Notes under the pieces: generated by a model | Database searches by the model: none | What the model saw: the letters and a program-made list of their open reading frames with translations, nothing else | Told to the model about the DNA's origin: nothing | In this document: piece by piece, positions 1-52,551 of the stretch | How positions within the stretch are numbered: position 1 is the first letter of the stretch | Layout of the letters: each line of letters opens with the position of its first letter | Assembly: GCF_050920415.1 (NCBI RefSeq) | Contig: NZ_CP169309.1 | Strand: one strand, 5' to 3' | From: Escherichia coli | GTDB lineage: Bacteria; Pseudomonadota; Gammaproteobacteria; Enterobacterales; Enterobacteriaceae | Length of the DNA: 64,000 nucleotides | Position numbers and translations under genes: made by a program

Positions 1-1739
1 ACGAAGGGGATAACCGTAAGGGCGTTAGTATTCGTGGTCTGGACAGCAGTTACACCCTGATTCTTGTCGATGGTAAACGCGTTAACTCCCGCAATGCCGT
101 TTTCCGCCATAATGATTTCGATCTGAACTGGATACCTGTCGACTCCATCGAGCGTATTGAAGTGGTCCGTGGCCCGATGTCGTCGCTGTACGGTTCCGAT
201 GCGCTCGGCGGTGTCGTGAATATCATCACCAAAAAAATCGGTCAGAAATGGTCGGGTACCGTTACTGTCGATACCACCATTCAGGAACATCGCGATCGCG
301 GTGATACCTATAACGGTCAGTTCTTTACCAGCGGACCATTAATTGACGGCGTGCTGGGAATGAAAGCTTACGGCAGCCTGGCAAAACGTGAAAAGGATGA
401 CCCACAAAACTCAACGACCACCGATACCGGAGAAACGCCGCGTATTGAAGGATTCTCCAGCCGCGACGGCAATGTGGAATTTGCCTGGACACCGAATCAA
501 AATCACGATTTTACCGCTGGATATGGTTTTGACCGTCAGGATCGTGATTCCGACTCGCTGGACAAAAACCGCCTGGAACGTCAGAACTACTCCGTTAGCC
601 ATAATGGGCGTTGGGATTACGGCACCAGCGAACTGAAATACTACGGTGAGAAAGTCGAAAACAAAAACCCTGGCAACAGCAGCCCGATTACTTCCGAAAG
701 CAATACGGTCGATGGTAAATACACGTTGCCACTGACGGCGATTAATCAGTTTGTTACGGTTGGCGGTGAATGGCGTCACGACAAACTTAGCGATGCAGTA
801 AACCTGACCGGAGGAACAAGCTCCAAAACGTCTGCCAGCCAGTACGCGCTGTTTGTGGAAGATGAATGGCGGATCTTCGAGCCGCTGGCGCTGACGACCG
901 GCGTGCGTATGGACGATCACGAAACCTACGGTGAACACTGGAGTCCTCGTGCCTACCTGGTTTACAACGCCACCGACACCGTAACGGTGAAAGGGGGCTG
1001 GGTGACGGCATTTAAAGCACCTTCTCTGTTGCAACTTAGCCCTGACTGGACGAGCAATTCCTGCCGTGGCGCATGTAAGATTGTGGGTAGCTCGGATCTG
1101 AAACCTGAAACCAGCGAAAGTTGGGAGCTGGGGCTTTACTACATGGGTGAAGAAGGCTGGCTGGAAGGGGTTGAATCCAGCGTGACCGTTTTCCGCAACG
1201 ATGTAAAAGATCGTATCAGCATCAGCCGTACGTCTGACGTCAATGCTGCTCCGGGCTACCAAAACTTTGTCGGTTTTACAGCGGACGGTGTGCCAGTATT
1301 CAGCTACTACAACGTTAACAAAGCACGTATTCAGGGCGTGGAAACCGAACTGAAAATTCCGTTCAACGATGAATGGAAACTGTCGATCAACTACACCTAC
1401 AACGATGGTCGTGATGTCAGCAACGGCGAAAACAAACCGTTGTCCGATCTGCCGTTCCATACCGCTAACGGTACGCTGGACTGGAAACCGCTGGCGCTGG
1501 AAGACTGGTCATTCTATGTTTCTGGTCACTATACCGGGCAGAAACGCGCCGACAGCGCGACGGCTAAAACTCCGGGCGGTTATACCATCTGGAATACCGG
1601 CGCGGCCTGGCAGGTGACCAAAGACGTCAAACTGCGTGCGGGTGTGCTGAACCTTGGCGACAAGGATCTCAGTCGTGACGACTACAGCTATAACGAAGAT
1701 GGACGTCGTTACTTTATGGCAGTGGATTATCGCTTCTGA
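1..1739 (+). CDS. cirA: TonB-dependent outer-membrane siderophore/colicin I receptor, 3' portion (5' end lies upstream of window)
   Basis: Frame is open from window start (translation [27 protein letters not shown]... continues into the 525-aa ORF) and ends with the aromatic C-terminal residue typical of TonB-dependent barrels (...DYRF*); synteny next to yeiG/folE. Confidence 0.85.
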
Positions 1740-1747
1740 TGCGAAGA

Positions 1748-1772
1748 TGCCCGGCGTGGATCCCGCCGGGCA
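1748..1772. terminator. GC-rich hairpin (gcccggcg-N7-cgccgggc) between convergent cirA and island transporter gene; possible bidirectional terminator
   Basis: Inverted repeat read directly in sequence; no strong U-tract on either side. Confidence 0.35.
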
Positions 1773-1797
1773 TAATCCCAGAAATTCGCTTCTGGCT

Positions 1798-3120
1798 TTA
1801 TAACCGATGAAATTTTGCCAGTAAGGCCAGTGAAAATGTTGTCAGCAAAATGGTAATGACTGCGTAAATATACACTCCTGACCATTCCCAACTGTTTTTC
1901 ACCATAATAACTGGAAGCCCTGCCATTGCCGCGCCTAAATAACTAAACAAGCCCCTGAATCCAGTAATGGAACCTGCCGCATCTTTATGCGTAACATCAA
2001 GACACCCGACAGCGAATAACATATGCGGTCCATACAATGCAAACCCCATGATTGTAAACAGAATAGCCGTTAATGTGTAGGAGACGTCCTGCACCAGCGG
2101 TACGAGAACGATGCAAATACATAAAGCGATGGCAAAGATTAATCCTGTCATCCAGCGGTTACTTTTAAACATGAAATCGGACAAGTACCCCGCCAGTAAT
2201 CCCCCAGCAAGTCCACCTGCTTCAAACCAGGATATAATGGAGTTCGCTTTAATCAGGCTCCAGTTATGAACCTGAGAATAATAAATTTGTGGCCAGTCAT
2301 TGAGGATGGTGCGTGCAATATAGACCGACATATCCCCGAGGATAATGAGCCAAACTAATGGGTTGGTAAGAATATATTTAACGAATATTTGCCAAAAACT
2401 GAGATCAACCGGACTTGCTTTAACTTGTGCAAGTTCTGTCGGGTCGTTGCGCCACTTACCGACGTTAGGCAAACCGAGCGTGCCGGGACGATCTTTTATC
2501 GTAAACAAGGCAACAATCCCCATAATCAGTGAGATTACACCCGGAACATAAAAGCCCATCTTCCAGCTGCCACTAAAAGCAATAGCAAAGCTTGTCAGGA
2601 GAGGCGCAAGACTACCGCCAATATTATGCGCAGCTTCAACAACTGCCCACCAGCGTCCGCGTTCATTTTTCGAGAACCACGAGGCCATAATTTTTGCCAT
2701 TGGCGGAAAACTGGTACCCTGGAGAATAGCATTAAGGCTATACAGGATATAGAACGCAGCAACGCTGTCTGAAAAACCGAAAAGAATGTTAACAATACCG
2801 ACGCCAATAAGTACGGGGCCAGTCATCGCTCGTGGGTTAATTTTATCGACTAACATGCCACCTACAAACTTCATGGAGCCATAAAGAATGTAAAAGACCG
2901 ACGACATGATAGCGAAATCTTGTGCGGTTAATGACGTATCCGTTAACATCGCTGGCATGGCCGCAGAGAAATTCTTGCGGGTTAAGTAAAATACGGCATA
3001 AGAGATAAATACAGAGGTGATGATTTCAATGCGAAATTTTTTATAAGTATGATCAACTTCTTCTTTTGGTTTGACCACCGGTTGGTCGGCCTGGCTGAAA
3101 ATAAATTTTTTCAAACTCAT
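1798..3120 (-). CDS. MFS transporter, organophosphate:phosphate antiporter family (UhpT/UhpC/GlpT/PgtP-like), 440 aa
   Basis: 440-aa polytopic protein with 12 predicted hydrophobic segments and motifs typical of sugar-phosphate/phosphoglycerate antiporters; not present at this position in the K-12 arrangement (cirA is directly followed by yeiG there). Confidence 0.75.
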   Translation of the reverse strand: MSLKKFIFSQADQPVVKPKEEVDHTYKKFRIEIITSVFISYAVFYLTRKNFSAAMPAMLTDTSLTAQDFAIMSSVFYILYGSMKFVGGMLVDKINPRAMTGPVLIGVGIVNILFGFSDSVAAFYILYSLNAILQGTSFPPMAKIMASWFSKNERGRWWAVVEAAHNIGGSLAPLLTSFAIAFSGSWKMGFYVPGVISLIMGIVALFTIKDRPGTLGLPNVGKWRNDPTELAQVKASPVDLSFWQIFVKYILTNPLVWLIILGDMSVYIARTILNDWPQIYYSQVHNWSLIKANSIISWFEAGGLAGGLLAGYLSDFMFKSNRWMTGLIFAIALCICIVLVPLVQDVSYTLTAILFTIMGFALYGPHMLFAVGCLDVTHKDAAGSITGFRGLFSYLGAAMAGLPVIMVKNSWEWSGVYIYAVITILLTTFSLALLAKFHRL

Positions 3121-3152
3121 TGTGAGTTTCCTTTTCTGTGAACCTTATGGCG

Positions 3153-4040
3153 CTATAATTTTTCTTCTATAAAAAAGAGAAGCGACTCGAAACCATTAAA
3201 ATTAATCTGGTCAGCAATTTTTTCCCGGGTTTTAGATTTTGCTTTCCATGCCACGCCATTTCCGGCATGCAAAAGCATAGGAATATCATTGGCACCATCT
3301 CCACAGGCAATGATGTTTTCACGGCAGATAGCTAACTCTGTCGCTAAATTTATCAGGGTTTGCTTTTTCTTTTCTGCATTCATAATAGGTAAGGTAATTG
3401 TATCAGTTAACAGATCTTCCTTAATGCGCACAGAGTTAGAAAATGCAAAATCAAGTTGATATTTTTCCTTCAATCGCTCAGTAAAAATATCCAAACCTCC
3501 AGATATAATTGCCGTCTTGAATCCTTTTTCTTTTAGTATGGGAAGAATAGTTTCAAGACCTGGTGAAAGAGTCATCTGTTCACAAACTTGATGCAATATA
3601 TCTTTATGCGTTCCTTTAAGCATGGCAATTCGCCGGGTAAAACTGGTATCAAAATCGATTTTCCCTTCCATCGCTTCACGGGTCAGTGCGGTGATTTTTT
3701 CAGAGATGCCGAGTCTACGGGCTATTTCATCGACACCTTCTTCTTCAACAAAGGTGGAATCCATATCAAAGGCAATAATTCCCTGATCCGGCAAGACCCT
3801 GGGTTTACGGAAAAAATCAAACTGATGATTATCAGCACGGTGACGTAAACCAGCATAAAAAGCAGGGTTGGTAACATCATCTGGTAATACTAGCTTTAGA
3901 TACTCTTTATTTATTTGCCCACTGTAATTCGTTGTTAGCGAAAACACCGAGGGGGAAATCTTTAAATGTTGCAGATAATCTTCCAGACATTTTTGGGTGA
4001 TGTCGATGCCTGTTGGCGACAAGAAATAAATAATCGTCAT
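3153..4040 (-). CDS. HAD-superfamily phosphoserine phosphatase (SerB-like paralog), 295 aa
   Basis: HAD motifs in translation: motif I 'AFDMDSTF', 'ISGGLD', motif IV 'CGDGANDIPML'; overall collinear with E. coli SerB catalytic domain. Confidence 0.8.
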   Translation of the reverse strand: MTIIYFLSPTGIDITQKCLEDYLQHLKISPSVFSLTTNYSGQINKEYLKLVLPDDVTNPAFYAGLRHRADNHQFDFFRKPRVLPDQGIIAFDMDSTFVEEEGVDEIARRLGISEKITALTREAMEGKIDFDTSFTRRIAMLKGTHKDILHQVCEQMTLSPGLETILPILKEKGFKTAIISGGLDIFTERLKEKYQLDFAFSNSVRIKEDLLTDTITLPIMNAEKKKQTLINLATELAICRENIIACGDGANDIPMLLHAGNGVAWKAKSKTREKIADQINFNGFESLLFFIEEKL

Positions 4041-4134
4041 TTACCGCTCCTTTTTATCTGCAATGATTATAATAAGATTTCATAGAGGCTGATGTATCTG
4101 ACAATCACAGTTGTGAATGTTAAATAAAAGATAA

Positions 4135-4195
4135 AAAAGTACTTTTTTTGATACTTTGAAATAATAAGATACTAAAAGTACCATTTTTGATATCT
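4135..4195. promoter_or_regulatory. Pair of ~20-bp direct repeats (aaaagtacYNtttttgatatc) in AT-rich divergent promoter region of the island
   Basis: Direct repeats at 4135-4155 and 4174-4195 seen in sequence; located between divergently transcribed SerB-like and serine dehydratase genes. Confidence 0.3.
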
Positions 4196-4250
4196 TTACC
4201 AGGATATAAAGAATAACTATTTTTCAACGTTGAAGGAATCATTTAAAAAT

Positions 4251-5603
4251 ATGGAAAGCTGCATAGATATATTCAAGATAGTTATTGGTCCATCCAGTTC
4301 CCGCACAGTCGGGCCAATGCGTGCGGCTTATAATTTTGTGTCACAATTGAAACAGCAAGAAATGTTACCTTTGTTGCGGAAAATTGATGTCGAACTTTAT
4401 GGTGCGCTGTCATTAAGCCGCAAGTGCCATAATGTTGATGTGGCGATTTATCTCGGTTTGCAAGGACACTTACCTGACAGCGTTGACATTCGCATGGAAA
4501 TGTCCGCCATCAGGCGTGCAGAAACTGAGGCGACGCTGGAAGTTATGCCTGGTGTCAACGTCAGTGTATCCATTCTTTCTAATCTACAAGCGCATCCGGG
4601 GCACCCTTATGCGATGACATTTCGTGCCAGAGATGACTGGTTTACACTTTATGAAGAAACCTGGTTTTCTATCGGCGACGGTCAAGTGCTAAAAGCAGGA
4701 GAGGCGATTATTCCTCCATCAGTCACTCCACATCCTTTTGAATTCCAGAACGCAAACGAATTATTAAAACTTTGTCAGCAAAATGGATTATCTGTCGCGG
4801 CATTAATGATGAAAAACGAACTGCACTGCCAGACAGCAGCTTTTTTGCATGACGATCTTCATAAAAAATGGGAAGTAATGAAGGATGCGGTTTATCGCGG
4901 GATGCATACAGAAGGATTACTTCCAGGTCCGTTTCAGGTTAACCGTCGTGCCTGTGCTTTATATAAATCGTTGCAGTCAAAGGGGTTTTCCAATGACTTC
5001 CTGACTACGCTCAATTGGGTCAATACTTTTGCCATTGCGGTGAGCGAAGAAAATGCTGCGGGTGGACGTGTCGTGACAGCACCCACCAACGGCGCGAGCG
5101 GTATTATCCCGGCTGTACTGTGCTGGTATGATAAATTCATTCACGAGCTTGATACATACTCCGTTACCCGCTTTTTACTGACCGCTGGTGCCATCGCCAT
5201 TCTGTTCAAAAAAAATGCCTCTATTCTGGGTTCTGAAGTTGGATGTCAGGGGGAAATAGGTGTTGCCAGTTCAATGGCGGCAGCAGGATTAGCAGAACTT
5301 ATGGGCGGGTCAGTGGCTCAGGTACTTAGCGCGGCAGAAATTGCGATGGAGCATCATTTAGGTTTGACCTGTGATCCAGTTGGCGGGCAGGTACAAATTC
5401 CTTGTATTGAACGAAATGCTATTTCAGCTGTGAAAGCTATCAACGCAACGACGATGGCGTTGAGTCGCATAAGCGAGCCGTGCATTACACTGGATGAGAT
5501 AATTTCCGCGATGTATGAAACCGGAAAGGATATGAGCGCTAAATACCGTGAAACTTATCATGGCTGTCTGAGCAAATTGCAGCCAAGAAAAAAGGATGCG
5601 TAA
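4251..5603 (+). CDS. L-serine dehydratase (iron-sulfur, SdaA/SdaB/TdcG family) paralog
   Basis: Translation aligns along its length with E. coli SdaA (e.g. '[12 protein letters not shown]', '[18 protein letters not shown]', '[19 protein letters not shown]', '[21 protein letters not shown]', '[14 protein letters not shown]'). ATG at 4251 matches SdaA N-terminus; an alternative TTG start at 4230 is possible. Confidence 0.85.
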
Positions 5604-5994
5604 GATGAAATATAATACGATGAATAACAACGAAATTATTTTATCACTGTGCGCTCGCATTAAAGAAACGCGTATCTCATTATCATTGACCCAACAGCAG
5701 TTAGCCGAGCGTGCATTGGTGGGCATAGCAACGGTCAAGCGGATTGAAAAGGGGGGAAGTTTAAATCTTGATACTCTCATTTCTCTTCTGCGCGCGCTGA
5801 ATAAATTGCAAAATCTCGATGCCATATTGTTCGAAGCAGAAATGCGTAATTTCAACGAAAATAGTTCCAGCGGCGAAGGGGCAGGGCGACTACAGGTACG
5901 CCAGCAACTGACAGATTTAAACCAGAAGTCTCCAGCCCCGCACGCAGATGACCATAATTTTAGTACGGCGCTGGAAAATACCCTCTGCTGGTGA
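5596..5994 (+). CDS. Small helix-turn-helix (XRE/Cro-like) transcriptional regulator with non-conserved C-terminal tail
   Basis: N-terminal segment 'ISLSLTQQQLAERALVGIATVKRIEKG' is a classic HTH_XRE signature; start overlaps serine dehydratase stop; stop codon abuts yeiG stop back-to-back. Confidence 0.55.
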   Translation: MRKMKYNTMNNNEIILSLCARIKETRISLSLTQQQLAERALVGIATVKRIEKGGSLNLDTLISLLRALNKLQNLDAILFEAEMRNFNENSSSGEGAGRLQVRQQLTDLNQKSPAPHADDHNFSTALENTLCW

Positions 5995-6864
<870 letters not shown>

Positions 6865-18984: not shown

Positions 18985-20111
<1,127 letters not shown>

Positions 20112-20205
20112 TTAATTCGTAAAACGTGCTACCGATCACATTAAGAATTCTCAGCATAGTTGAATTACAGGGAAGTAACATCGGGCGAGTGCCCAGTTCA
20201 GCACA

Positions 20206-21114
20206 CTAATTCTGCTGTAAAAAGTGCAGAAACTGACTTAAAGCATAAGAAGGCGTTTCGTTATTACGCCAAAACACACCGACGCTGCCTTTCTGTTCAA
20301 TCTTTGGCAGGTTGAGGATCACCAGTTGCCCCTGGCTGGCATAACGTTGCGCCAGGCGTAATGACAAAATAGAGATCATATTGCTGCTTTGTAACAGGTT
20401 GGTACTGACGTTCATCGACGCCGACTCAATCGTGTTTTCTGGCAGCATCACGCCGTGGTCTACCAGCGCATTATCAATGCTGATGCGGATGGGGGTACCT
20501 GTCGGCCAGACTATCCACCGCCAGTTAGCAAGATCATTCCAGCTGAGGGTGGCGTATTTCGCCAGTGGATGCTCAGGACGGGCGACAAAGCATACCGGCT
20601 CGGTGTAGAGCACGCGATAATTCAGCGGCAGCTGCAACGCGCGACCGCCAATTCGCCCAACCACCACATCGATAGAACCTGCCAACAGATCTTGCAGCAA
20701 TGGGGTCATCACCTTCTCTTCGATATTCAGGTGTAGAGTTGGCATCTCCTTGAGCAAATGCAAAATCGCCTGGGATACGCAGTCAGTGGCGACGGGAGAA
20801 CAGCCAATTTTCAGACTGCCGACCAGTCCACCTTGTTTAAAGCGAGCCAGTTCATATTGCGATCTTTCCATGTCATTGATTAACCGTTGGGCATGTTGCA
20901 ATAACAATTTGCCGCCTTCGGTCGGACGAAGCCCGTTGCTGTGCCGCTCAAAAAGTGTGAGTCCGATCTCATCTTCCAGTTGTGACAACCATTTCGAAAG
21001 CGCGGGTTGGGTGATATTCATCATCCGTGCGACATGGGTCAGATTACCCTGTTCACCCAGCGCCACCAGCATTTGCAGGTGATGTAGTTTTAGTTTTTGC
21101 GCCCAGTTCGCCAT
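20206..21114 (-). CDS. mhbR: LysR-family transcriptional regulator, divergent from the gentisate operon
   Basis: N-terminal HTH ('LHHLQMLVALGEQGNLTHVARMMNITQPALSKWLSQLE') plus LysR substrate-binding domain; divergent arrangement as in Klebsiella mhbR. Start at in-frame ATG 21114 (longer ORF to 21162 possible). Confidence 0.75.
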   Translation of the reverse strand: MANWAQKLKLHHLQMLVALGEQGNLTHVARMMNITQPALSKWLSQLEDEIGLTLFERHSNGLRPTEGGKLLLQHAQRLINDMERSQYELARFKQGGLVGSLKIGCSPVATDCVSQAILHLLKEMPTLHLNIEEKVMTPLLQDLLAGSIDVVVGRIGGRALQLPLNYRVLYTEPVCFVARPEHPLAKYATLSWNDLANWRWIVWPTGTPIRISIDNALVDHGVMLPENTIESASMNVSTNLLQSSNMISILSLRLAQRYASQGQLVILNLPKIEQKGSVGVFWRNNETPSYALSQFLHFLQQN

Positions 21115-21240
21115 TTGCCATAACCTCCAGGTTATCTCTCTGCCCGAAATGCCATTGTACATCTCATCTCTTTAATCACATTATCGCAACATATACAAAA
21201 CAAAAGAAACATCTACCTTACCTGCACTGAGGCATTTACT

Positions 21241-22599
21241 ATGACTCAACGACGTGATTTACAAGCACTTATCGATGCCGCTCCGGTCGGCAAGATGCAG
21301 TGGCGCGTTATCATCTGCTGTTTTCTGGTGGTAATGCTCGATGGTTTTGACACCGCGGCTATCGGCTTTATCGCCCCTGATATTCGCACTCACTGGCAAC
21401 TCACCGCAGGCGATCTCGCCCCGCTTTTTGGTGCGGGTCTGCTGGGTTTAACGGCAGGCGCACTGCTTTGTGGCCCGTTGTCTGACCGCTTTGGCCGCAA
21501 ACGGGTGATAGAGCTATGCGTCTTTTTATTTGGCGCGTTAAGTCTCGCCTCTGCGTTTTCACCAGATCTGCAAACGCTGGTATTACTGCGTTTTCTCACC
21601 GGCCTGGGGCTTGGCGGGGCGATGCCGAACACCATCACCATGACCTCGGAATATCTGCCTGCCCGTCGCCGGGGCGCGCTGGTGACGCTGATGTTTTGCG
21701 GCTTTACGCTGGGTTCGGCGTTTGGCGGGATTGTCAGCGCACAGCTGGTGCCGGTGATTGGCTGGCACGGCATTCTGGTGTTGGGGGGCGTGTTACCGCT
21801 GATGCTGTTTGTCGCACTGCTGGTAGTTCTGCCGGAATCGCCACGCTGGCAGGTGCGCCGCCAGCTACCGCAGGCGGTGATTGCGAAAACCGTCAGCGCC
21901 ATCACCCGCGAGCGTTATGTCGATACCCACTTTTATCTCATTGAATCAGCCTCCGTTACAAAAGGCAGCATTCGTCAACTGTTTATGGGACGTCAGTTAC
22001 CCATTACGTTGATGCTTTGGGTGGTGTTCTTTATGAGCCTGCTGATTATTTACCTGCTCTCAAGCTGGATGCCAACGCTGTTGAACCATCGCGGCATAGA
22101 CCTGCAACACGCGTCCTGGGTCACCGCCGCGTTCCAGATTGGCGGTACGTTGGGCGCGCTGGCGCTGGGCGTGCTGATGGATAAGTTCAATCCTTTCCGC
22201 GTGCTGGCGCTGAGCTATGCCGTAGGCGCTGTATGCATCGTGATGATTGGCTTAAGCCAGGATGGATTATGGCTGATGGCGCTGGCGATTTTCGGCACCG
22301 GCATTGGCATTAGCGGATCTCAGGTGGGGTTGAACGCGTTGACCGCAACGCTCTACCCAACGCAAAGCCGCGCCACGGGCGTGAGCTGGTCAAACGCCGT
22401 AGGCCGCTGCGGCGCGATTGTCGGCTCGCTTTCTGGCGGCCTGATGATGGCGATGAATTTCTCTTTCGACACCCTGTTTTTCATTATCGCTGTGCCCGCG
22501 GCGATCAGTGCGGTGATGTTAAGCCTGCTGATCACCGTGGTTCGCCAGTCGACCTCTGTCCCTGACTCACTGCCTCGCGCAGGCGTTGTGAACGAATAA
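21241..22599 (+). CDS. mhbT: MFS aromatic-acid:H+ symporter (3-hydroxybenzoate transporter-like), 452 aa
   Basis: 12-TM MFS with 'GRKR' loop motif; first gene of catabolic operon. Confidence 0.75.
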
Positions 22600-22610
22600 G
22601 GAGCATCCTA

Positions 22611-23639
22611 ATGACTGATAACAATCAAAAAAGCCGCGAGCAATTTTATCAGCATATTTCCGGGCAAAACCTGACCCCGCTGTGGGAGTCACTGCACCAC
22701 CTGGTGCCGAAAACGCCCAACGCCAACTGTGCGCCAGCGTACTGGAATTATCAGGAGATCCGCCCGCTGCTGCTGGAGAGCGGCAGCCTGATTGGCGCGA
22801 AAGAAGCTGTGCGTCGTGTGCTGGTACTGGAAAACCCGGCGCTGCGCGGGCAGTCTTCCATTACCGCGACTTTATATGCCGGTTTGCAACTGATCATGCC
22901 GGGCGAAGTGGCACCGAGTCATCGTCATAACCAATCGGCGCTGCGTTTTATTGTTGAAGGCAAAGGGGCATTTACCGCCGTTGATGGCGAACGCACGCCA
23001 ATGAATGAGGGCGATTTTATCCTGACCCCACAATGGCGCTGGCACGATCATGGTAACCCTGGCGACGAACCGGTTATCTGGCTCGATGGACTGGATCTGC
23101 CATTAGTGAACACTCTGGGCTGCGGTTTTGCCGAAGATTACCCGGAAGAGCAACAACCGGTCACGCGTAAAGAGGGGGATTATCTGCCGCGTTATGCCGC
23201 CAATATGTTGCCGCTGCGCCATCAGACGGGGAACTCCTCACCGATCTTTAACTATCGTTATGACCGTAGCCGCGAAGTGCTGCACGATTTAACCCGCCTG
23301 GGCGATGCCGACGAGTGGGATGGCTACAAAATGCGCTACGTCAACCCGGTCACCGGCGGCTATCCGATGCCGTCGATGGGCGCTTTCCTGCAACTGCTAC
23401 CGAAAGGGTTCGCCTCCCGCGTGGCGCGTACCACTGACAGCACTATCTACCATGTGGTGGAAGGTAGCGGACAAGTCACCATCGGCAATGAAATCTTCAC
23501 CTTTAGTGCAAAAGATCTCTTTGTGGTGCCGACCTGGCACGGCGTGTCATTCCAGACTACGCAAGATACCGTTTTATTCAGTTTTTCGGACAGACCGGTA
23601 CAAGAAGCCCTGGGGCTGTTCCGCGAAGCGCGTTATTAA
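22611..23639 (+). CDS. mhbD: Gentisate 1,2-dioxygenase (bicupin), 342 aa
   Basis: Two cupin modules with His triad ('[14 protein letters not shown]', 'WRWHDHGN'); length typical of gentisate dioxygenases. Confidence 0.8.
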
Positions 23640-23654
23640 TTTGGGAGAGAGAAA

Positions 23655-24356
23655 ATGACTCAATATGTATTCGAACCACAAGCGCCCGTTACCGTACCGG
23701 TTGTTGGCAGTGATGAACAATTCCCCGTGCGCCGCGTTTACTGCGTCGGGCGTAACTATGCTGCCCACGCCCGCGAAATGGGCTTTGATCCGGATCGTGA
23801 ACCCCCCTTCTTCTTCTGCAAACCAGCAGATGCCGTTGTTCCGGTCGCCGCTGGCGAAACGCTGGCGCTGCCGTATCCGGCGCAGACCGATAACTATCAT
23901 TACGAAATTGAACTGGTGGTGGCGATTGGTAAAAAGGGCAGCGATATCCCACTGGAAAAGGCCCATGAATATGTCTGGGGTTATGCCACAGGCCTTGATA
24001 TGACTCGCCGTGACCGTCAAATGGAAATGCGTCAGATGGGCCGCCCGTGGGAAATCGGCAAAGCATTTGATCTCTCGGCCCCCATCGCACCGCTGCACAA
24101 AGCCAGCGAAACTGGCGGTATTGATAACGCACCTATCTGGTTACAGGTTAACGGTGAAGATCACCAGCGCAGCGATATTCGCCATCTCATCTGGTCGGTG
24201 AATGAAACCATCAGCTACCTGTCAGGCTTCTTTGAACTGCAACCGGGCGATCTAATCTTTACCGGTACGCCGGAAGGGGTTGGCCCAGTAGTCAAAGGTG
24301 ATGTGATCACGGGCAACGTCGAGGGCTTAACCCCTATCGCGGTGAAGATCGTCTGA
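23655..24356 (+). CDS. mhbH: Fumarylpyruvate hydrolase (FAH family), 233 aa
   Basis: FAH-fold motifs ('[13 protein letters not shown]', 'GTPEGVGPV'). Confidence 0.75.
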
Positions 24357-24361
24357 GGTGC

Positions 24362-25009
24362 ATGATGAAGCTGTACAGTTTTTTTAATAGTTCAGCATCG
24401 TACCGGGTACGCATTGCGCTGGCGCTGAAAGGCATTAATTACCAGACCGAAGGGGTGAATATCCGTATTGGTCGGCAAAATGAACTGGCCTATCGGCGGA
24501 TGAATCCTGTCGGGCTGGTGCCGACGCTGCTGACTGACGAGGGCGAGTCACTCGGTCAGTCGCTGGCGATTATTGACTGGCTGGATCGTCACTACCCGCA
24601 AGTTCCGCTGGTGCCGCAGGAAGAACCGGCCCGCAATAAGGTGCTGGGAATTGTCTATGCCATCGCTTGTGATATTCATCCATTGAATAACCTGCGCGTG
24701 CTGCGCTATCTGACCGAAGAGCTGAACGTCAGTGAAGAAGAGAAAAAACGCTGGTATGCGCACTGGATCCAGCAAGGGTTAAGCGCGGTGGAACAGCTAC
24801 TGCGCCAGAGCCAGTCGGGGCAATTTTGTGTGGGTGAGACGCCGACGCTGGCAGACTGCTGCCTTGTTCCGCAGTGGGCGAACGCGCTACGTATGAACTG
24901 CGATCTGAGAGGATATCCGCGCTGCAAAGCGGTGTACGACGCCTGCACACAACTGCCAGCGTTCATTGCCGCAGCGCCAGAAAATCAACAAGATAAAATT
25001 TCAGCCTGA
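24362..25009 (+). CDS. mhbI: Maleylpyruvate isomerase (zeta-class glutathione S-transferase), 215 aa
   Basis: GST N-terminal thioredoxin fold ('KLYSFFNSSASYRVRIAL') and GST-zeta-like C-terminus; sits between hydrolase and hydroxylase. Confidence 0.7.
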   Translation: MMKLYSFFNSSASYRVRIALALKGINYQTEGVNIRIGRQNELAYRRMNPVGLVPTLLTDEGESLGQSLAIIDWLDRHYPQVPLVPQEEPARNKVLGIVYAIACDIHPLNNLRVLRYLTEELNVSEEEKKRWYAHWIQQGLSAVEQLLRQSQSGQFCVGETPTLADCCLVPQWANALRMNCDLRGYPRCKAVYDACTQLPAFIAAAPENQQDKISA

Positions 25010-25023
25010 CCAGGAGAACCATA

Positions 25024-26217
25024 ATGACTAAAGTGACACGCGCAGTAATTGTGGGAGGCGGGATCGGCGGTGCGGCAACTGCGCTGTCACTGGCCCGCCA
25101 GGGGATCAAAGTGGTGCTGCTGGAAAAGGCGCATGAGATCGGTGAGATTGGCGCAGGTATCCAGTTGGGGCCAAATGCGTTTTCGGCGTTGGATAGTCTT
25201 GGTGTTGGCGAAATCGCCCGCCAACGTGCGGTATTCACCGATCACATCACCATGATGGACGCGGTGAACGCCGAAGAAGTGGTGCGTATTGAAACCGGGC
25301 AGGCCTTTCGTGACCATTTCGGCGGCCCTTACGCGGTGATCCACCGCGTTGATATTCATGCCTCGGTGTGGGAAGCGGTACTGACGCATCCGGACGTGGA
25401 ATATCACACCTCCACCAACGTCGTGGATATTCGCGAGACGGAAGACGATGTCACCGTGTTTGACGATCGCGGCAATAGCTGGAGCGGCGATATTCTGATT
25501 GGCTGTGACGGTGTGAAATCAGTGGTGCGCCAGAGCTTATTGGGCGATGCGCCGCGTGTCACCGGACATGTGGTCTACCGTGCGGTTATCGATTGTGCCG
25601 ATATGCCGGAAGATTTGCGCATTAACGCACCGGTACTGTGGGCGGGGCCGCATTGTCACCTGGTGCATTACCCTTTGCGCGGCGGCAAGCAGTATAACCT
25701 GGTGGTAACATTCCACAGCCGCCAGCAGGAAGAGTGGGGCGTGAAGGATGGCAGTAAAGAGGAAGTGCTCTCTTACTTTGAAGGGATTCACCCCCGTCCG
25801 CGCCAGATGTTGGATAAACCGACTTCATGGCGACGCTGGTCAACCGCTGACCGTGAACCGGTGGCGAAGTGGGGAACGAAGCGCATAACGCTTGTGGGCG
25901 ATGCGGCCCATCCGGTGGCGCAATATATGGCGCAGGGAGCCTGTATGGCGCTGGAAGATGCAGTAACGCTGGGTAAGGCGCTGGCGCAGTGTGAGGGTGA
26001 TGCGGCGCAAGCCTTTGCGCTGTATGAGTCGGTACGAATTCCGCGCACCGCGCGCATCGTCTGGTCGACCCGTGAAATGGGGCGGGTTTATCACGCCGCA
26101 GGGGTAGAACGTCAGGTACGTAACCTGCTGTGGAAAGGGAAATCGCAGGCAGAGTTTTATCGCGGCATGGAGTGGCTGTACGGCTGGAAAGAAGATAACT
26201 GTTTGCAACCACGCTGA
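25024..26217 (+). CDS. mhbM: 3-Hydroxybenzoate 6-hydroxylase (FAD-dependent aromatic monooxygenase, salicylate hydroxylase-like), 397 aa
   Basis: FAD motifs 'VIVGGGIGGAATAL' and 'GDAAHPVAQYMAQGACMALEDA'. Confidence 0.8.
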   Translation: MTKVTRAVIVGGGIGGAATALSLARQGIKVVLLEKAHEIGEIGAGIQLGPNAFSALDSLGVGEIARQRAVFTDHITMMDAVNAEEVVRIETGQAFRDHFGGPYAVIHRVDIHASVWEAVLTHPDVEYHTSTNVVDIRETEDDVTVFDDRGNSWSGDILIGCDGVKSVVRQSLLGDAPRVTGHVVYRAVIDCADMPEDLRINAPVLWAGPHCHLVHYPLRGGKQYNLVVTFHSRQQEEWGVKDGSKEEVLSYFEGIHPRPRQMLDKPTSWRRWSTADREPVAKWGTKRITLVGDAAHPVAQYMAQGACMALEDAVTLGKALAQCEGDAAQAFALYESVRIPRTARIVWSTREMGRVYHAAGVERQVRNLLWKGKSQAEFYRGMEWLYGWKEDNCLQPR

Positions 26218-26375
26218 GCACTTCTTCACCCAATCAGGCGCACGGGCGGTCCCCTCGCCCCTTCGGGAGAGGGTTAGGGTGAGGGAAAAATCTTGCCCGA
26301 ATTAATCAGTAAGTCAGTTTGTCTGCAAACACCAGAGGCGCTAACATAGCGCCTCATTTTTTTGCGGGTGATGAT

Positions 26376-27323
26376 ATGCGTGTGTTACTGGCGCCGATGG
26401 AGGGTGTACTCGACTCTCTGGTGCGTGAATTGCTGACCGAAGTTAACGACTACGATCTGTGCATCACCGAGTTTGTCCGCGTGGTGGATCAACTGCTGCC
26501 GGTAAAAGTTTTTCATCGCATTTGCCCGGAGCTACAAAACGCCAGCCGAACGCCATCCGGTACGCTGGTGCGCGTGCAATTGCTGGGTCAGTTCCCACAA
26601 TGGCTGGCAGAGAACGCCGCCCGTGCGGTGGAGTTAGGTTCCTGGGGTGTGGATCTTAATTGCGGCTGTCCGTCGAAAACGGTTAACGGTAGCGGCGGCG
26701 GGGCGACACTACTCAAAGATCCTGAACTCATCTACCAGGGTGCAAAAGCGATGCGTGAAGCTGTACCGGCGCATTTGCCCGTCAGTGTGAAAGTGCGTCT
26801 GGGCTGGGACAGCGGTGAGAAGAAATTTGAAATCGCCGATGCGGTTCAACAGGCTGGCGCTACGGAGTTGGTGGTGCATGGGCGGACAAAAGAGCAGGGG
26901 TACCGCGCGGAGCATATTGACTGGCAGGCGATTGGCGAGATTCGCCAACGGCTGAATATTCCGGTGATTGCCAACGGTGAAATCTGGGACTGGCAGAGCG
27001 CGCAACAGTGTATGGCGATCAGCGGCTGTGACGCGGTGATGATTGGTCGCGGAGCGCTCAATATTCCCAATCTGAGCCGAGTGGTAAAATATAACGAACC
27101 GCGAATGCCGTGGCCGGAGGTGGTTGCTTTGCTACAAAAATATACCCGTCTGGAAAAGCAGGGCGATACCGGGTTATATCACGTTGCGCGGATTAAACAG
27201 TGGTTGAGTTATTTGCGTAAAGAATACGATGAAGCAACAGAATTATTTCAGCATGTTCGGGTGTTGAATAATTCCCCTGATATTGCAAGGGCTATTCAGA
27301 CCATTGATATCGAGAAACTCTAA
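26376..27323 (+). CDS. dusC: tRNA-dihydrouridine synthase C, ~315 aa
   Basis: Dus family TIM-barrel sequence; start chosen at [10 protein letters not shown] (ORF track allows 19 extra N-terminal codons). Confidence 0.85.
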
Positions 27324-27779: not shown

Positions 27780-28002
27780 TGGCGTTCCTTTATTTGTGAG
27801 TGTCGAATAAGTATAGGAAAAAACGAAGCCCTTTGCCGTTACTCATAAGTGATTAAGATAAATCGGAGAATATCATTCACTTACTGTATATTTTTCTGAA
27901 TATGTCGTTTTATTGCCACTGATGTATTGCCACGCGAAACTAAAAAATATATTGCATCACACGGTAATCTCCGCGCACCTTTTCTTACCTGACTATTCCT
28001 CC

Positions 28003-29439
28003 ATGAATCGTGATTCCTTTTACCCAGCCATCGCCTGTTTTCCTCTGTTACTGATGCTGGCCGGGTGTGCGCCTATGCATGAAACCCGCCAGGCGTTAAG
28101 CCAGCAAACACCCGCTGCGCAAGTTGACACCGCATTACCTACGGCGCTGAAAAATGGTTGGCCAGACAGCCAATGGTGGCTGGAGTATCACGATAATCAA
28201 CTCACTTCATTAATTAACTATGCACTGCAGAATGCACCGGATATGCAGGTGGCTGAACAGCGCATTCAGCTGGCTGAAGCCCAGGCGAAGGCAGTTGCCA
28301 CTCAGGATGGCCCTCAGATCGATTTTTCTGCGGATATGGAGCGGCAAAAAATGTCGGCAGAAGGGCTAATGGGGCCGTTTGCTCTGAACGATCCTGCCGC
28401 AGGTACGACCGGTCCGTGGTACACCAATGGTACTTTTGGCTTAACGGCGGGCTGGCATCTTGATATTTGGGGAAAGAATCGGGCGGAGGTTACTGCTCGC
28501 CTGGGTACAGTTAAAGCACGGGCGGCGGAACGCGAGCAAACCCGCCAATTGCTGGCTGGCAGCGTTGCCCGCCTTTACTGGGAGTGGCAAACCCAGGCAG
28601 CGTTAAACACTGTTTTGCAGCAAATCGAAAAAGAGCAGAACACCATTATCGCGACCGATCGCCAGCTATACCAGAACGGGATTACTTCTTCAGTTGAAGG
28701 TGTGGAAACCGATATTAATGCCAGCAAGACCCGGCAGCAGCTCAACGATGTCGTGGGAAAAATGAAAATTATTGAGGCACGGTTAAGCGCACTTACAAAT
28801 CACCAGATAAAGTCATTGAAGCTTAAACCGGTTGAGTTGCCGAAAGTGGCAAGTCAGCTTCCTGATGAACTGGGGTATTCATTGCTGGCACGGCGGGCAG
28901 ATTTGCAGGCAGCGCATTGGTACGTTGAGTCATCGTTAAGCACCATTGATGCGGCAAAAGCGGCCTTTTATCCTGACATCAACCTGATGGCCTTCCTGCA
29001 ACAGGATGCGTTGCACTTAAGCGATTTGTTCCGTCATTCCGCGCAGCAAATGGGCGTTACGGCAGGCCTGACGCTACCCATTTTCGATAGTGGTCGTCTT
29101 AACGCCAACCTCGATATTGCAAAAGCCGAAAGCAACTTGTCTATCGCCAGCTACAACAAAGCGGTGGTTGAAGCGGTGAATGACGTGGCGCGGGCAGCCA
29201 GTCAGGTTCAGACGCTGGCGGAGAAAAACCAGCATCAGGCGCAAATTGAGCGCGATGCCTTGCGTGTGGTAGGTCTTGCGCAGGCCCGCTTTAACGCGGG
29301 TATCATTGCTGGTTCCCGCGTCAGCGAAGCCAGGATCCCGGCGCTGCGTGAGCGGGCCAATGGCCTGTTATTGTAAGGGCAGTGGCTGGATGCCTCCATT
29401 CAACTCACTGGTGCGTTGGGCGGGGGTTACAAACGCTGA
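28003..29439 (+). pseudogene. mdtQ: Outer-membrane efflux channel (OprM/NodT family lipoprotein); reading frame interrupted by in-frame TAA at 29374-29376
   Basis: Lipoprotein signal 'LLLMLAGC'; OMF family body. After the TAA stop the same frame continues 'GQWLDASIQLTGALGGGYKR*', which carries the family-typical ALGGG(Y/W) C-terminal motif, so the stop is premature. Confidence 0.6.
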
Positions 29440-31717: not shown

Positions 31718-31890
31718 AAAGTTCTTTTGTGTTGCATTGCTGGCGTAAATGTCAGCAATGCAGCATTTCCTCACGATTCTCCTTTGACGATCGCACTTTT
31801 TGCTCGTTATGATGGCGTCGCTAGCCTCAGTAAATCCTTACTCCGGCGGTGCGCAACCCGTGCGCGTGAACCACTATCTGAATGCTCATC

Positions 31891-32825: not shown

Positions 32826-33108
32826 GTAGGCAGGATAAGGCGTTTACGCCGCATCAGGCATTCGGAGCACAATGCCTGATGCGATGCTTGCGCATCTTAT
32901 CAGGCCTACAAACGTGACGCGTCCGTAGGCAGGATAAGGCGTTCACGCCGCATCCGGCATTCGGAGCACAATGCCTGATGCGATGCTTGCGCATCTTATC
33001 AGGCCTACAAACGTGACGCGTCCGTAGGCAGGATAAGGCGTTCACGCCGCATCCGGCATTCGGTGCACGATGCCTGATGCGATGCTTCTATTTGCATCAG
33101 GCATCCAG
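32826..33108. repeat. BIME: tandem array of REP units (three near-identical ~98-bp repeats) between pbpG and dld
   Basis: Unit 'ggcaggataaggcgttcacgccgcatccggcattcggagcacaatgcctgatgcgatgcttgcgcatcttatcaggcctacaaacgtgacgcgtccgta' recurs at ~32829, ~32927 and ~33025. Confidence 0.75.
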
Positions 33109-52467: not shown

Positions 52468-52551
52468 TAAAAAAACCTGCTGGTGAGGCAGGTTCTTTTA
52501 TTTACTACTTTCAGGCCTAACACCACGGCCTGTGCAACATCGTGTTCCAAC
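52468..52551 (-). ncRNA. Candidate cis-encoded/divergent antitoxin sRNA (OrzO-like) with sigma70-like promoter and intrinsic terminator
   Basis: Minus-strand -35 TTGCAA (52586-52581), 17-bp spacer, -10 TATAAT (52563-52558); minus-strand terminator stem aacctgc/gcaggtt (52474-52494) followed by a T-run on that strand. The 5' part of the predicted RNA is complementary to a 20-nt segment (52698-52717) in the leader of the downstream toxin ORF (19/20 match to plus-strand 52532-52551). Ends are estimates. Confidence 0.4.

Follow-up and report, generated by a model that had tools for sequence, protein, structure and literature searches.

The closest described counterpart of the locus considered here is the mhbRTDHIM cluster of Klebsiella pneumoniae M5a1, a strain now placed in the oxytoca group. 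The gene names and roles used below are those given for M5a1 in PMC3572157. Catabolism of 3-hydroxybenzoate by this pathway was shown in M5a1, and Klebsiella DNA was by itself sufficient for growth of K-12 on 3-hydroxybenzoate (Robson et al. 1996, as cited in PMC3572157); Jones and Cooper (1990), Lin et al. (2010), and, for Salmonella, Goetz and Harmuth (1992) are also cited there. The present analysis concerns a six-gene locus, mhbR/mhbTDHIM, situated between yohJ and dusC within a 64,000-nucleotide stretch of DNA (hereafter the window) from Escherichia coli (contig NZ_CP169309.1 of RefSeq assembly GCF_050920415.1). It is probably a LysR-regulated operon for the aerobic catabolism of 3-hydroxybenzoate and gentisate at an ancestral locus that a divergent lineage has kept, the K-12 type being a deletion in which ~6.1 kb gave way to a 95-bp filler. 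The pathway, the Klebsiella prototype, and the structure of the O157:H7 enzyme are all already known; an mhb cluster at yohJ-dusC would mark retention, not acquisition, and its presence or absence could serve as a simple lineage marker.

In the comparisons made here, the M5a1 cluster was represented by close Klebsiella species. The likeness to M5a1 lies in the same six genes, in the same order and with a divergent LysR regulator. With K. michiganensis, K. grimontii, and K. spallanzanii, protein identity to the window is 83-91%, and both the yohJ/dusC flanks and an operator-like palindrome are the same; relative to Klebsiella, the window copy is set apart by a longer mhbM-dusC spacer that holds a dispersed repeat. 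The gentisate cluster of E. coli O157:H7 occupies the same locus with the six genes and the long spacer, and the six proteins together are ~98% identical, but nucleotide identity is only ~95.4%, the window coming from a divergent lineage. Ralstonia sp. U2 possesses nagIKL, which resemble the mhb genes in converting gentisate to fumarate and pyruvate in three steps by way of a glutathione-dependent zeta isomerase (NagL). The Ralstonia nag genes reportedly belong to a naphthalene/salicylate operon together with a salicylate 5-hydroxylase, and are said to lack a 3-hydroxybenzoate hydroxylase, an MhbT transporter, and an arrangement of the MhbR type. The gtdR-gtdA cluster of Cupriavidus necator H16 likewise comprises genes for a LysR regulator, gentisate dioxygenase, a hydrolase, MaiA, 3-hydroxybenzoate 6-monooxygenase, and an MFS transporter (PMC11603403); its gene order is different, with the transporter last, and C. 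necator was absent from the loci compared here.

A preliminary description of the window, made from the sequence alone, had proposed a complete glutathione-dependent gentisate pathway in the gene order of the Klebsiella mhb cluster, and this gene content, order, and pathway assignment were borne out by the list of open reading frames (ORFs), by NCBIfam models, and by relatives of solved structure. Six ORFs were confirmed at positions 20206-26217, a divergent LysR gene (mhbR) and five co-directional genes (mhbT-D-H-I-M; Table 1), and the same succession of divergent LysR regulator, transporter, dioxygenase, hydrolase, isomerase, and hydroxylase was seen in ~30 enterobacterial loci. The intergenic gaps within mhbTDHIM are 11, 15, 8, and 14 nt, and gaps of only 8-15 nt are as expected of a single operon. 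Compared with homologs from >20 species, each of the six ORFs is complete in length. In the 99.9% identical RefSeq genome NZ_CP169399 (strain MFDS1022581), no mhb gene is flagged as a pseudogene, and the annotation already names mhbT, gtdA, maiA, and a 3-hydroxybenzoate 6-monooxygenase. A 318-aa mhbR ORF that reaches position 21162 is an over-extension; the likely true start is at 21114, as called by PGAP in the same 99.9% identical genome, and the CAT complementary to this start codon was found to be invariant across genera when the mhbR-mhbT spacers were aligned.

Protein families were judged by the curated cutoffs of NCBIfam equivalogs together with solved-structure relatives. The dioxygenase was tested against a grouping with homogentisate or other cupin dioxygenases, a possibility that the preliminary description had itself raised, and MhbD groups as a gentisate 1,2-dioxygenase: it reaches 599.7 bits with the TIGR02272 equivalog of this enzyme, for which the cutoff is 442.1, and departs from PDB 2D40, the gentisate dioxygenase (GDO) of E. 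coli O157:H7, at only 8 of 342 residues (~98% identity). The histidines of the 3-His Fe2+ site of this bicupin protein (His104, His106, and His145) are present, and the enzyme of 2D40 is described as an Fe2+-stimulated gentisate dioxygenase (Adams et al. 2006, as cited by PMC4585797). MhbM passes the 3-hydroxybenzoate 6-monooxygenase equivalog NF006021 with 759.7 bits against a cutoff of 459. Its best solved relative is 4BJY/4BJZ (E 6e-79), the 3-hydroxybenzoate 6-hydroxylase of Rhodococcus jostii. Residues aligned to Y105, H213, Y217, and Q301 of the 4BJY enzyme are kept in MhbM and Arg169 is present, all five presumably being functional residues of 3-hydroxybenzoate 6-hydroxylase; MhbM is of the para-hydroxylating group A flavoprotein type and a predicted 3-hydroxybenzoate 6-hydroxylase.

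The earlier expectation of a glutathione-type isomerase, a glutathione S-transferase (GST) of the zeta class, was upheld with MhbI, which passes the TIGR01262 zeta-class isomerase equivalog (305.6 bits, the cutoff being 171), aligns with 2V6K and 2JL4, structures of the maleylpyruvate isomerase NagL, at E ~1e-47, and has the zeta motif SSASYRVRIAL (SSxSxRVRIAL) at residue 9. Its context suggests a preference for maleylpyruvate over maleylacetoacetate. The nearest solved chains to MhbH are 6J5Y (E 1.9e-113) and 4MAQ, a 'putative fumarylpyruvate hydrolase' (E 2.3e-73), and the position of mhbH in the operon points to fumarylpyruvate as its substrate. In MhbT, a DGFD (DGxD) motif at residue 34 and a GxxxD(R/K)xGR(R/K)-type motif at residue 78 correspond to the AAHS motifs described in PMC5566891; a 99.8% identical gene is called 'mhbT' by PGAP, and 3-hydroxybenzoate would be the substrate. 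The family assignments of the enzymes follow from their sequences, while the substrates of the transporter and the hydrolase, the regulation, and the growth phenotype are predictions.

The case for an ancestral locus begins with its position. A genome scan was performed with MhbM using one genome per species, followed by tblastn of all window proteins, and covered the best 80 of 590 hits, so that no absence can be inferred for a species missing from these 80. The order yohK-yohJ-mhbR/mhbTDHIM-dusC was found in five Citrobacter, Raoultella terrigena, three Pseudocitrobacter, Pluralibacter, four Kluyvera, Pseudenterobacter, Shimwellia, and one further enterobacterium, and the same arrangement in K. 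michiganensis, K. grimontii, K. spallanzanii, and the divergent 'E. coli' E69. With E. albertii, yohK-yohJ-mhbRTDHIM was seen on a contig that ends just after mhbM, dusC being beyond the contig, and with Salmonella diarizonae, the dusC side of the arrangement was seen. Serratia, Xenorhabdus, and Leminorella possess the R-TDHIM order in other contexts, and in the Alcaligenaceae both the gene order and the regulator are different. Over the 22 loci with all nine genes, pairwise protein distances of the six Mhb proteins were compared with those of YohK, YohJ, and DusC. Cluster and flank distances were correlated with a Pearson/Mantel r of 0.93, a slope of 0.95, and an intercept of 0.004, and 0 of 2000 permutations gave a correlation as high; between the window and Citrobacter the cluster distance is 0.091 and the flank distance 0.093, and between the window and K. 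michiganensis the respective values are 0.122 and 0.125. The nucleotide identities of the individual mhb genes also track those of the flanks.

A second line of evidence comes from the divergence of the window as a whole. Tiled at 1 kb over 50 kb, it shows 95-97% identity with K-12 and with O157:H7 alike, the mhb cluster, at 95.4% nucleotide identity to the O157:H7 copy, is at the genomic background, and no step in identity was found at the cluster borders in these tiles. The divergence of the cluster thus equals that of the chromosome, which argues that the cluster was present in the common ancestor with O157:H7. Local import by recombination was considered as an explanation of why identity to the O157:H7 copy is 95%, and was rejected, the whole window being equally diverged. 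At the mhb locus, MFDS1022581 alone among the 5426 complete E. coli genomes reaches 99% identity or more, and the strain is apparently a member of an uncommon, divergent branch of Escherichia, perhaps one of the cryptic clades.

The preliminary description had also spoken of an island 'inserted' between yohJ and dusC, and this part of it did not stand in view of the synteny in many genera, the distances that track those of the flanks, the background-level divergence, and the features of the site itself. No tRNA genes were found in window positions 15-32 kb, no pair of terminal direct or inverted repeats was found bounding the mhb cluster, and no integrase or insertion sequence (IS) ORFs occur between yohJ and dusC, where every ORF is a pathway gene. 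The GC content of the cluster (0.51-0.58) exceeds that of the neighboring genes (0.48-0.55) only slightly, and the two ranges overlap.

As the preliminary description had stated, yohJ and dusC are neighbors in K-12, where they are separated by a spacer of 238 bp. The filler between the K-12 breakpoints is a single-copy sequence of 95 bp that occurs in 4920 of the 5426 genomes at 95-100% identity, and the listed genomes without the cluster all have the same junction span of 1238 bp. That the K-12-type genomes share one 95-bp filler indicates an old loss, and the empty state is most simply a single allele, arisen once by deletion or replacement of ~6.1 kb and now in the majority. The K-12 spacer agrees with the sequence behind mhbM in its last 16 nt only; it holds there TTTAATCCGCTGACCA, a 16-mer found directly after the mhbM stop codon in E69 and matched by 14 nt in E. 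albertii. The mhb locus is best read as an old, vertically inherited enterobacterial position, and the K-12 state (~91% of complete genomes) as a derived deletion.

Presence of the cluster is strain-variable within E. coli, as had been proposed at the outset: it was found in 611 of the 5426 complete genomes (~11%), compared with the 4920 that have the filler allele. At the native site, the form with the long mhbM-dusC spacer, which is that of the window, was found in 365 genomes including O157:H7 and O55:H7, and the E69-like form with the short spacer in ~140 genomes, as estimated from an evenly spaced sample of hits. By subtraction, 506 genomes are without the filler and 611 with the cluster, which leaves, we infer, ~100 genomes in which the native site is empty and the module lies at another place.

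A number of observations nevertheless weigh against this account of the locus, and the first of them concern its mobility and composition. A 6.1-kb module (window 20154-26272) also occurs in IS-rich chromosomal islands of other E. coli; it adjoins efa1/lifA in an island of strain 99-3311 and Flp/tight-adherence pilus genes in an island of O145:H28 RM13516, and is found among IS256/ISEc60 remnants in a bovine strain, while NCTC9100 has only a 186-nt relic of mhbM beside IS30. Plasmid copies were found at 25 places in the 5426 genomes, and in the one inspected, pOkiPb01709_1 (225 kb), the module lies among IS elements ~5 kb from the heat-stable enterotoxin gene sta1; PLSDB has 18 records in which 80% or more of the cluster is covered, and among these is a chromosome-sized one of 4.9 Mb. 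The GC content at third codon positions (GC3) of the mhb genes, 0.56-0.67, is slightly higher than that of the flanks, 0.51-0.60, with overlapping ranges. Furthermore, the 95-bp filler was tried and rejected as a decayed remnant of the cluster, 99, 29, and 16 of 200 shuffles scoring as high in Smith-Waterman alignments with three cluster alleles, and because it is without significant similarity to the cluster, the deletion left no recognizable scar. A module that moves, a slightly higher GC3, a filler not recognizable as a remnant, and the lack of the cluster in ~89% of complete E. coli genomes would each agree with a horizontally acquired catabolic island inserted at yohJ-dusC in this lineage, the K-12 arrangement then being ancestral. 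Such an origin is nonetheless highly improbable given synteny at the same site in >10 enterobacterial genera, E. albertii among them, cluster and flank distances correlated with a slope near 1, a divergence from the O157:H7 copy equal to the genomic background, and a site with no mobility genes, tRNA, or terminal repeats.

Repeated capture of the mhb module by virulence islands of E. coli that produce Shiga toxin (STEC; O145:H28 and related) and by ~225-kb plasmids, in the ~100 genomes with an empty native site and in ruminant-associated pathotypes, might reflect positive selection for 3-hydroxybenzoate/gentisate catabolism as a trait of ruminant-gut colonization, an idea that is offered tentatively and may well prove wrong. 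If true, the mhb operon would be a niche-fitness factor that travels with virulence genes, not merely a relic, in a gut that breaks down plant polyphenols.

The native alleles present a different difficulty for uninterrupted retention. The distribution in E. coli is patchy and comprises at least two native alleles (the long spacer of the 365 genomes and the short spacer), as would be expected if the locus were old in the family, lost early in E. coli, and later restored to certain lineages, this one perhaps included, by homologous recombination of the yohJK/dusC flanks with DNA of another Escherichia lineage. In a few pairs of genera (Pluralibacter with Pseudocitrobacter, for example), the clusters resemble each other more than the flanks do, so that lateral exchange does take place to some extent at the yohJ-dusC locus. 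Strain 24A16CRGN010, with flanks 99.4-99.6% and mhb genes 95.9-99.2% identical to those of the window, hints at mosaic recombination within its mhb locus, which would also favor regain. For the window itself, the divergence from both K-12 and O157:H7 is uniform at ~95-97% over 50 kb without a local step at the cluster borders, and any imported tract would consequently need to exceed the locus by far in size, or to stem from the lineage of the strain itself. Regain by this strain is unlikely, and retention of the ancestral locus, with loss in the K-12 type, is the reading preferred.

MhbR and its positional counterparts in Citrobacter, Klebsiella, and Raoultella share 81-90% protein identity, whereas the regulators of the Alcaligenaceae/Burkholderiales in the genome scan are only 37-42% identical to MhbR. 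Alignment of the mhbR-mhbT spacer from 14 loci of ~10 genera revealed the palindrome ATAACCTCCAGGTTAT, whose 5-bp ends, ATAAC/GTTAT, are near-invariant, one or two loci having a single change in the arms or the center, in a spacer that is otherwise variable around it. By its LysR-box form, ATAACCTCCAGGTTAT is a candidate MhbR operator, and its layout is as expected of an autoregulating LysR operator. The 16-mer was reportedly described by Lin and colleagues in 2010 as the MhbR site in Klebsiella. The spacer also contains the invariant CCATTGTAC, and the TACAAT within it is a candidate -10 element of an mhbR promoter. A scan for sigma-70 consensus promoters gave no excess of sites (2 against 4.9 in shuffles), and promoters were not assigned from it because there were fewer sites than in the shuffles.

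In the pathway proposed, MhbT would import 3-hydroxybenzoate, and MhbM, with FAD, NAD(P)H, and O2, would hydroxylate it at C6 to gentisate. MhbD, with Fe2+, would cleave the ring of gentisate to give maleylpyruvate, MhbI, as a zeta GST with glutathione, would convert maleylpyruvate to fumarylpyruvate, and MhbH would release fumarate and pyruvate from the latter. MhbR, at ATAACCTCCAGGTTAT, would be expected to activate the operon when an aromatic compound or ring-cleavage product acts as effector, and to repress mhbR itself. With C. necator H16, the effector of the LysR regulator is 3-maleylpyruvate and not gentisate (PMC11603403), and because this homologous system responds to maleylpyruvate, the effector of MhbR is uncertain. 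The phenotype predicted for this strain, and for the ~11% of complete E. coli genomes with the cluster, would be the use of 3-hydroxybenzoate and gentisate derived from plant phenolics.

The remaining points of difficulty bear on this function. MhbH has generic FAH-family matches only, all below equivalog cutoffs; MhbT scores 425 bits with PcaK and 378.5 bits with the AAHS subfamily TIGR00895, both below cutoff; and MhbR matches LysR families only and falls below every equivalog cutoff, the best being PcaQ with 186 bits against 303.8. In the searchable literature, no report was found of growth of E. coli on 3-hydroxybenzoate or gentisate, or of a transcription phenotype. It could be argued from this silence, from the predicted nature of the transporter and hydrolase specificities, and from the response of the C. 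necator LysR system to maleylpyruvate and not gentisate (PMC11603403), that the operon, for all its intact genes, is cryptic, or that it serves another substrate (substituted salicylates or gentisates) or detoxification, and hence is not a marker of 3-hydroxybenzoate use. This would be quite unexpected of proteins that are 81-94% identical to those of the clusters of Klebsiella and relatives, with the same operator palindrome, for which, according to PMC3572157, the pathway was shown in M5a1 and Klebsiella DNA by itself gave K-12 the ability to use 3-hydroxybenzoate for growth (Robson et al. 1996, as cited there). Moreover, lineages 5% apart have all kept the six genes conserved and intact, by which purifying selection on the mhb genes is indicated. 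A 3-hydroxybenzoate/gentisate operon in use is the interpretation favored for the locus.

Downstream of mhbM, the long spacer of the window includes a GC-rich dispersed intergenic repeat of ~55 bp (…GGTCCCCTCGCCCCTTCGGGAGAGGGTTAGGGTGAGGG…) at 26236-26290, for which the median count in E. coli is 16 places per genome, and which may be of the 'Box C' class. Island-borne copies of the mhb module drop out of homology in the middle of this repeat, at window position 26272, and an inverted copy of the mhbM 3' end is found at 26314-26331. Beyond it, the hairpin GAGGCGCTAACATAGCGCCTC could, judging from its form, terminate the mhb operon. It is near-invariant in six aligned genomes, one base differing in two of them, and these include K-12, which is without mhb. 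Because so terminator-like an element lies so close to the start codon and has been kept from Klebsiella to K-12 regardless of mhb, a regulatory role in dusC expression is suggested. An Rfam scan of the whole window gave no match between 20 and 27 kb. In strain 24A16CRGN010, an IS200/IS605 transposase gene lies between mhbM and dusC.

Table 1. Positions of the mhb genes, their flanks, and associated or neighboring features in the 64,000-nucleotide window.
Feature	Position	Strand	Remarks
UhpC/PgtP-like MFS transporter	1798-3120	-	In segment 1760-5990
SerB-like phosphoserine phosphatase	3153-4040	-	In segment 1760-5990
L-serine ammonia-lyase	4230-5603	+	In segment 1760-5990
yohJ, left flank	19677-20075	-	PRK01821, 218 bits (cutoff 124)
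Left breakpoint relative to the K-12 empty allele	20149-20160		Homology weakens from ~20149 and is lost by 20159/20160
mhbR, LysR-type transcriptional regulator	20206-21114	-	302 aa; divergent from the operon
Palindrome ATAACCTCCAGGTTAT, candidate MhbR operator	21120-21135		7-bp arms, 2-bp center; 5 nt upstream of the mhbR start codon
CCATTGTAC, invariant between mhbR and mhbT	21152-21160		Minus strand reads TACAAT
mhbT, aromatic acid/H+ symporter (MFS), predicted 3-hydroxybenzoate uptake	21241-22599	+	
mhbD (gtdA), gentisate 1,2-dioxygenase, cupin	22611-23639	+	
mhbH, FAH-family hydrolase, predicted fumarylpyruvate hydrolase	23655-24356	+	
mhbI (maiA), zeta-class GST, predicted glutathione-dependent maleylpyruvate isomerase	24365-25009	+	ORF from 24362; PGAP start 24365
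mhbM, FAD-dependent 3-hydroxybenzoate 6-monooxygenase	25024-26217	+	
Long mhbM-dusC spacer variant, common to O157:H7	26218-26330		Replaces the 18-nt CACTTTAATCCGCTGACC of short-spacer alleles
Hairpin GAGGCGCTAACATAGCGCCTC followed by a T-run	26335-26363	+	20 nt before the dusC ATG; candidate mhb operon terminator
dusC, right flank	26376-27323	+	NF007838, 696 bits against a cutoff of 395

A 9.2-kb contig from a metagenome-assembled genome (MAG) of Collinsella encodes MhbR, MhbT, MhbD, and MhbM at 84-99% protein identity to those of the window, and mhbH and mhbI were not found on it; the contig is almost certainly mis-binned Escherichia DNA. Elsewhere in the window, a second accessory segment (1760-5990) between cirA (162-1739) and yeiG (5995-6831) is without a match in K-12 and O157:H7, as judged from their syntenic 50-kb regions. 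With its transporter, phosphatase, and ammonia-lyase genes (Table 1), it looks like a module for phosphoserine uptake and catabolism. The mdtQ ORF (27913-29376) matches positions 1-457 of the 478 in the MdtQ profile, a C-terminal truncation; mdtQ is a pseudogene according to PGAP in the near-identical genome and a pseudogene by frameshift in K-12, and the O157:H7 copy is intact. The Rfam scan further identified a Peptidase-S11 RNA upstream of pbpG (31806-31886), two copies of naRNA4 at 32829-33005, and, on the minus strand at 52469-52544, the antitoxin RNA OrzO-P (RF02083, 98.9 bits), which indicates a zor-orz type I toxin-antitoxin locus at that position.

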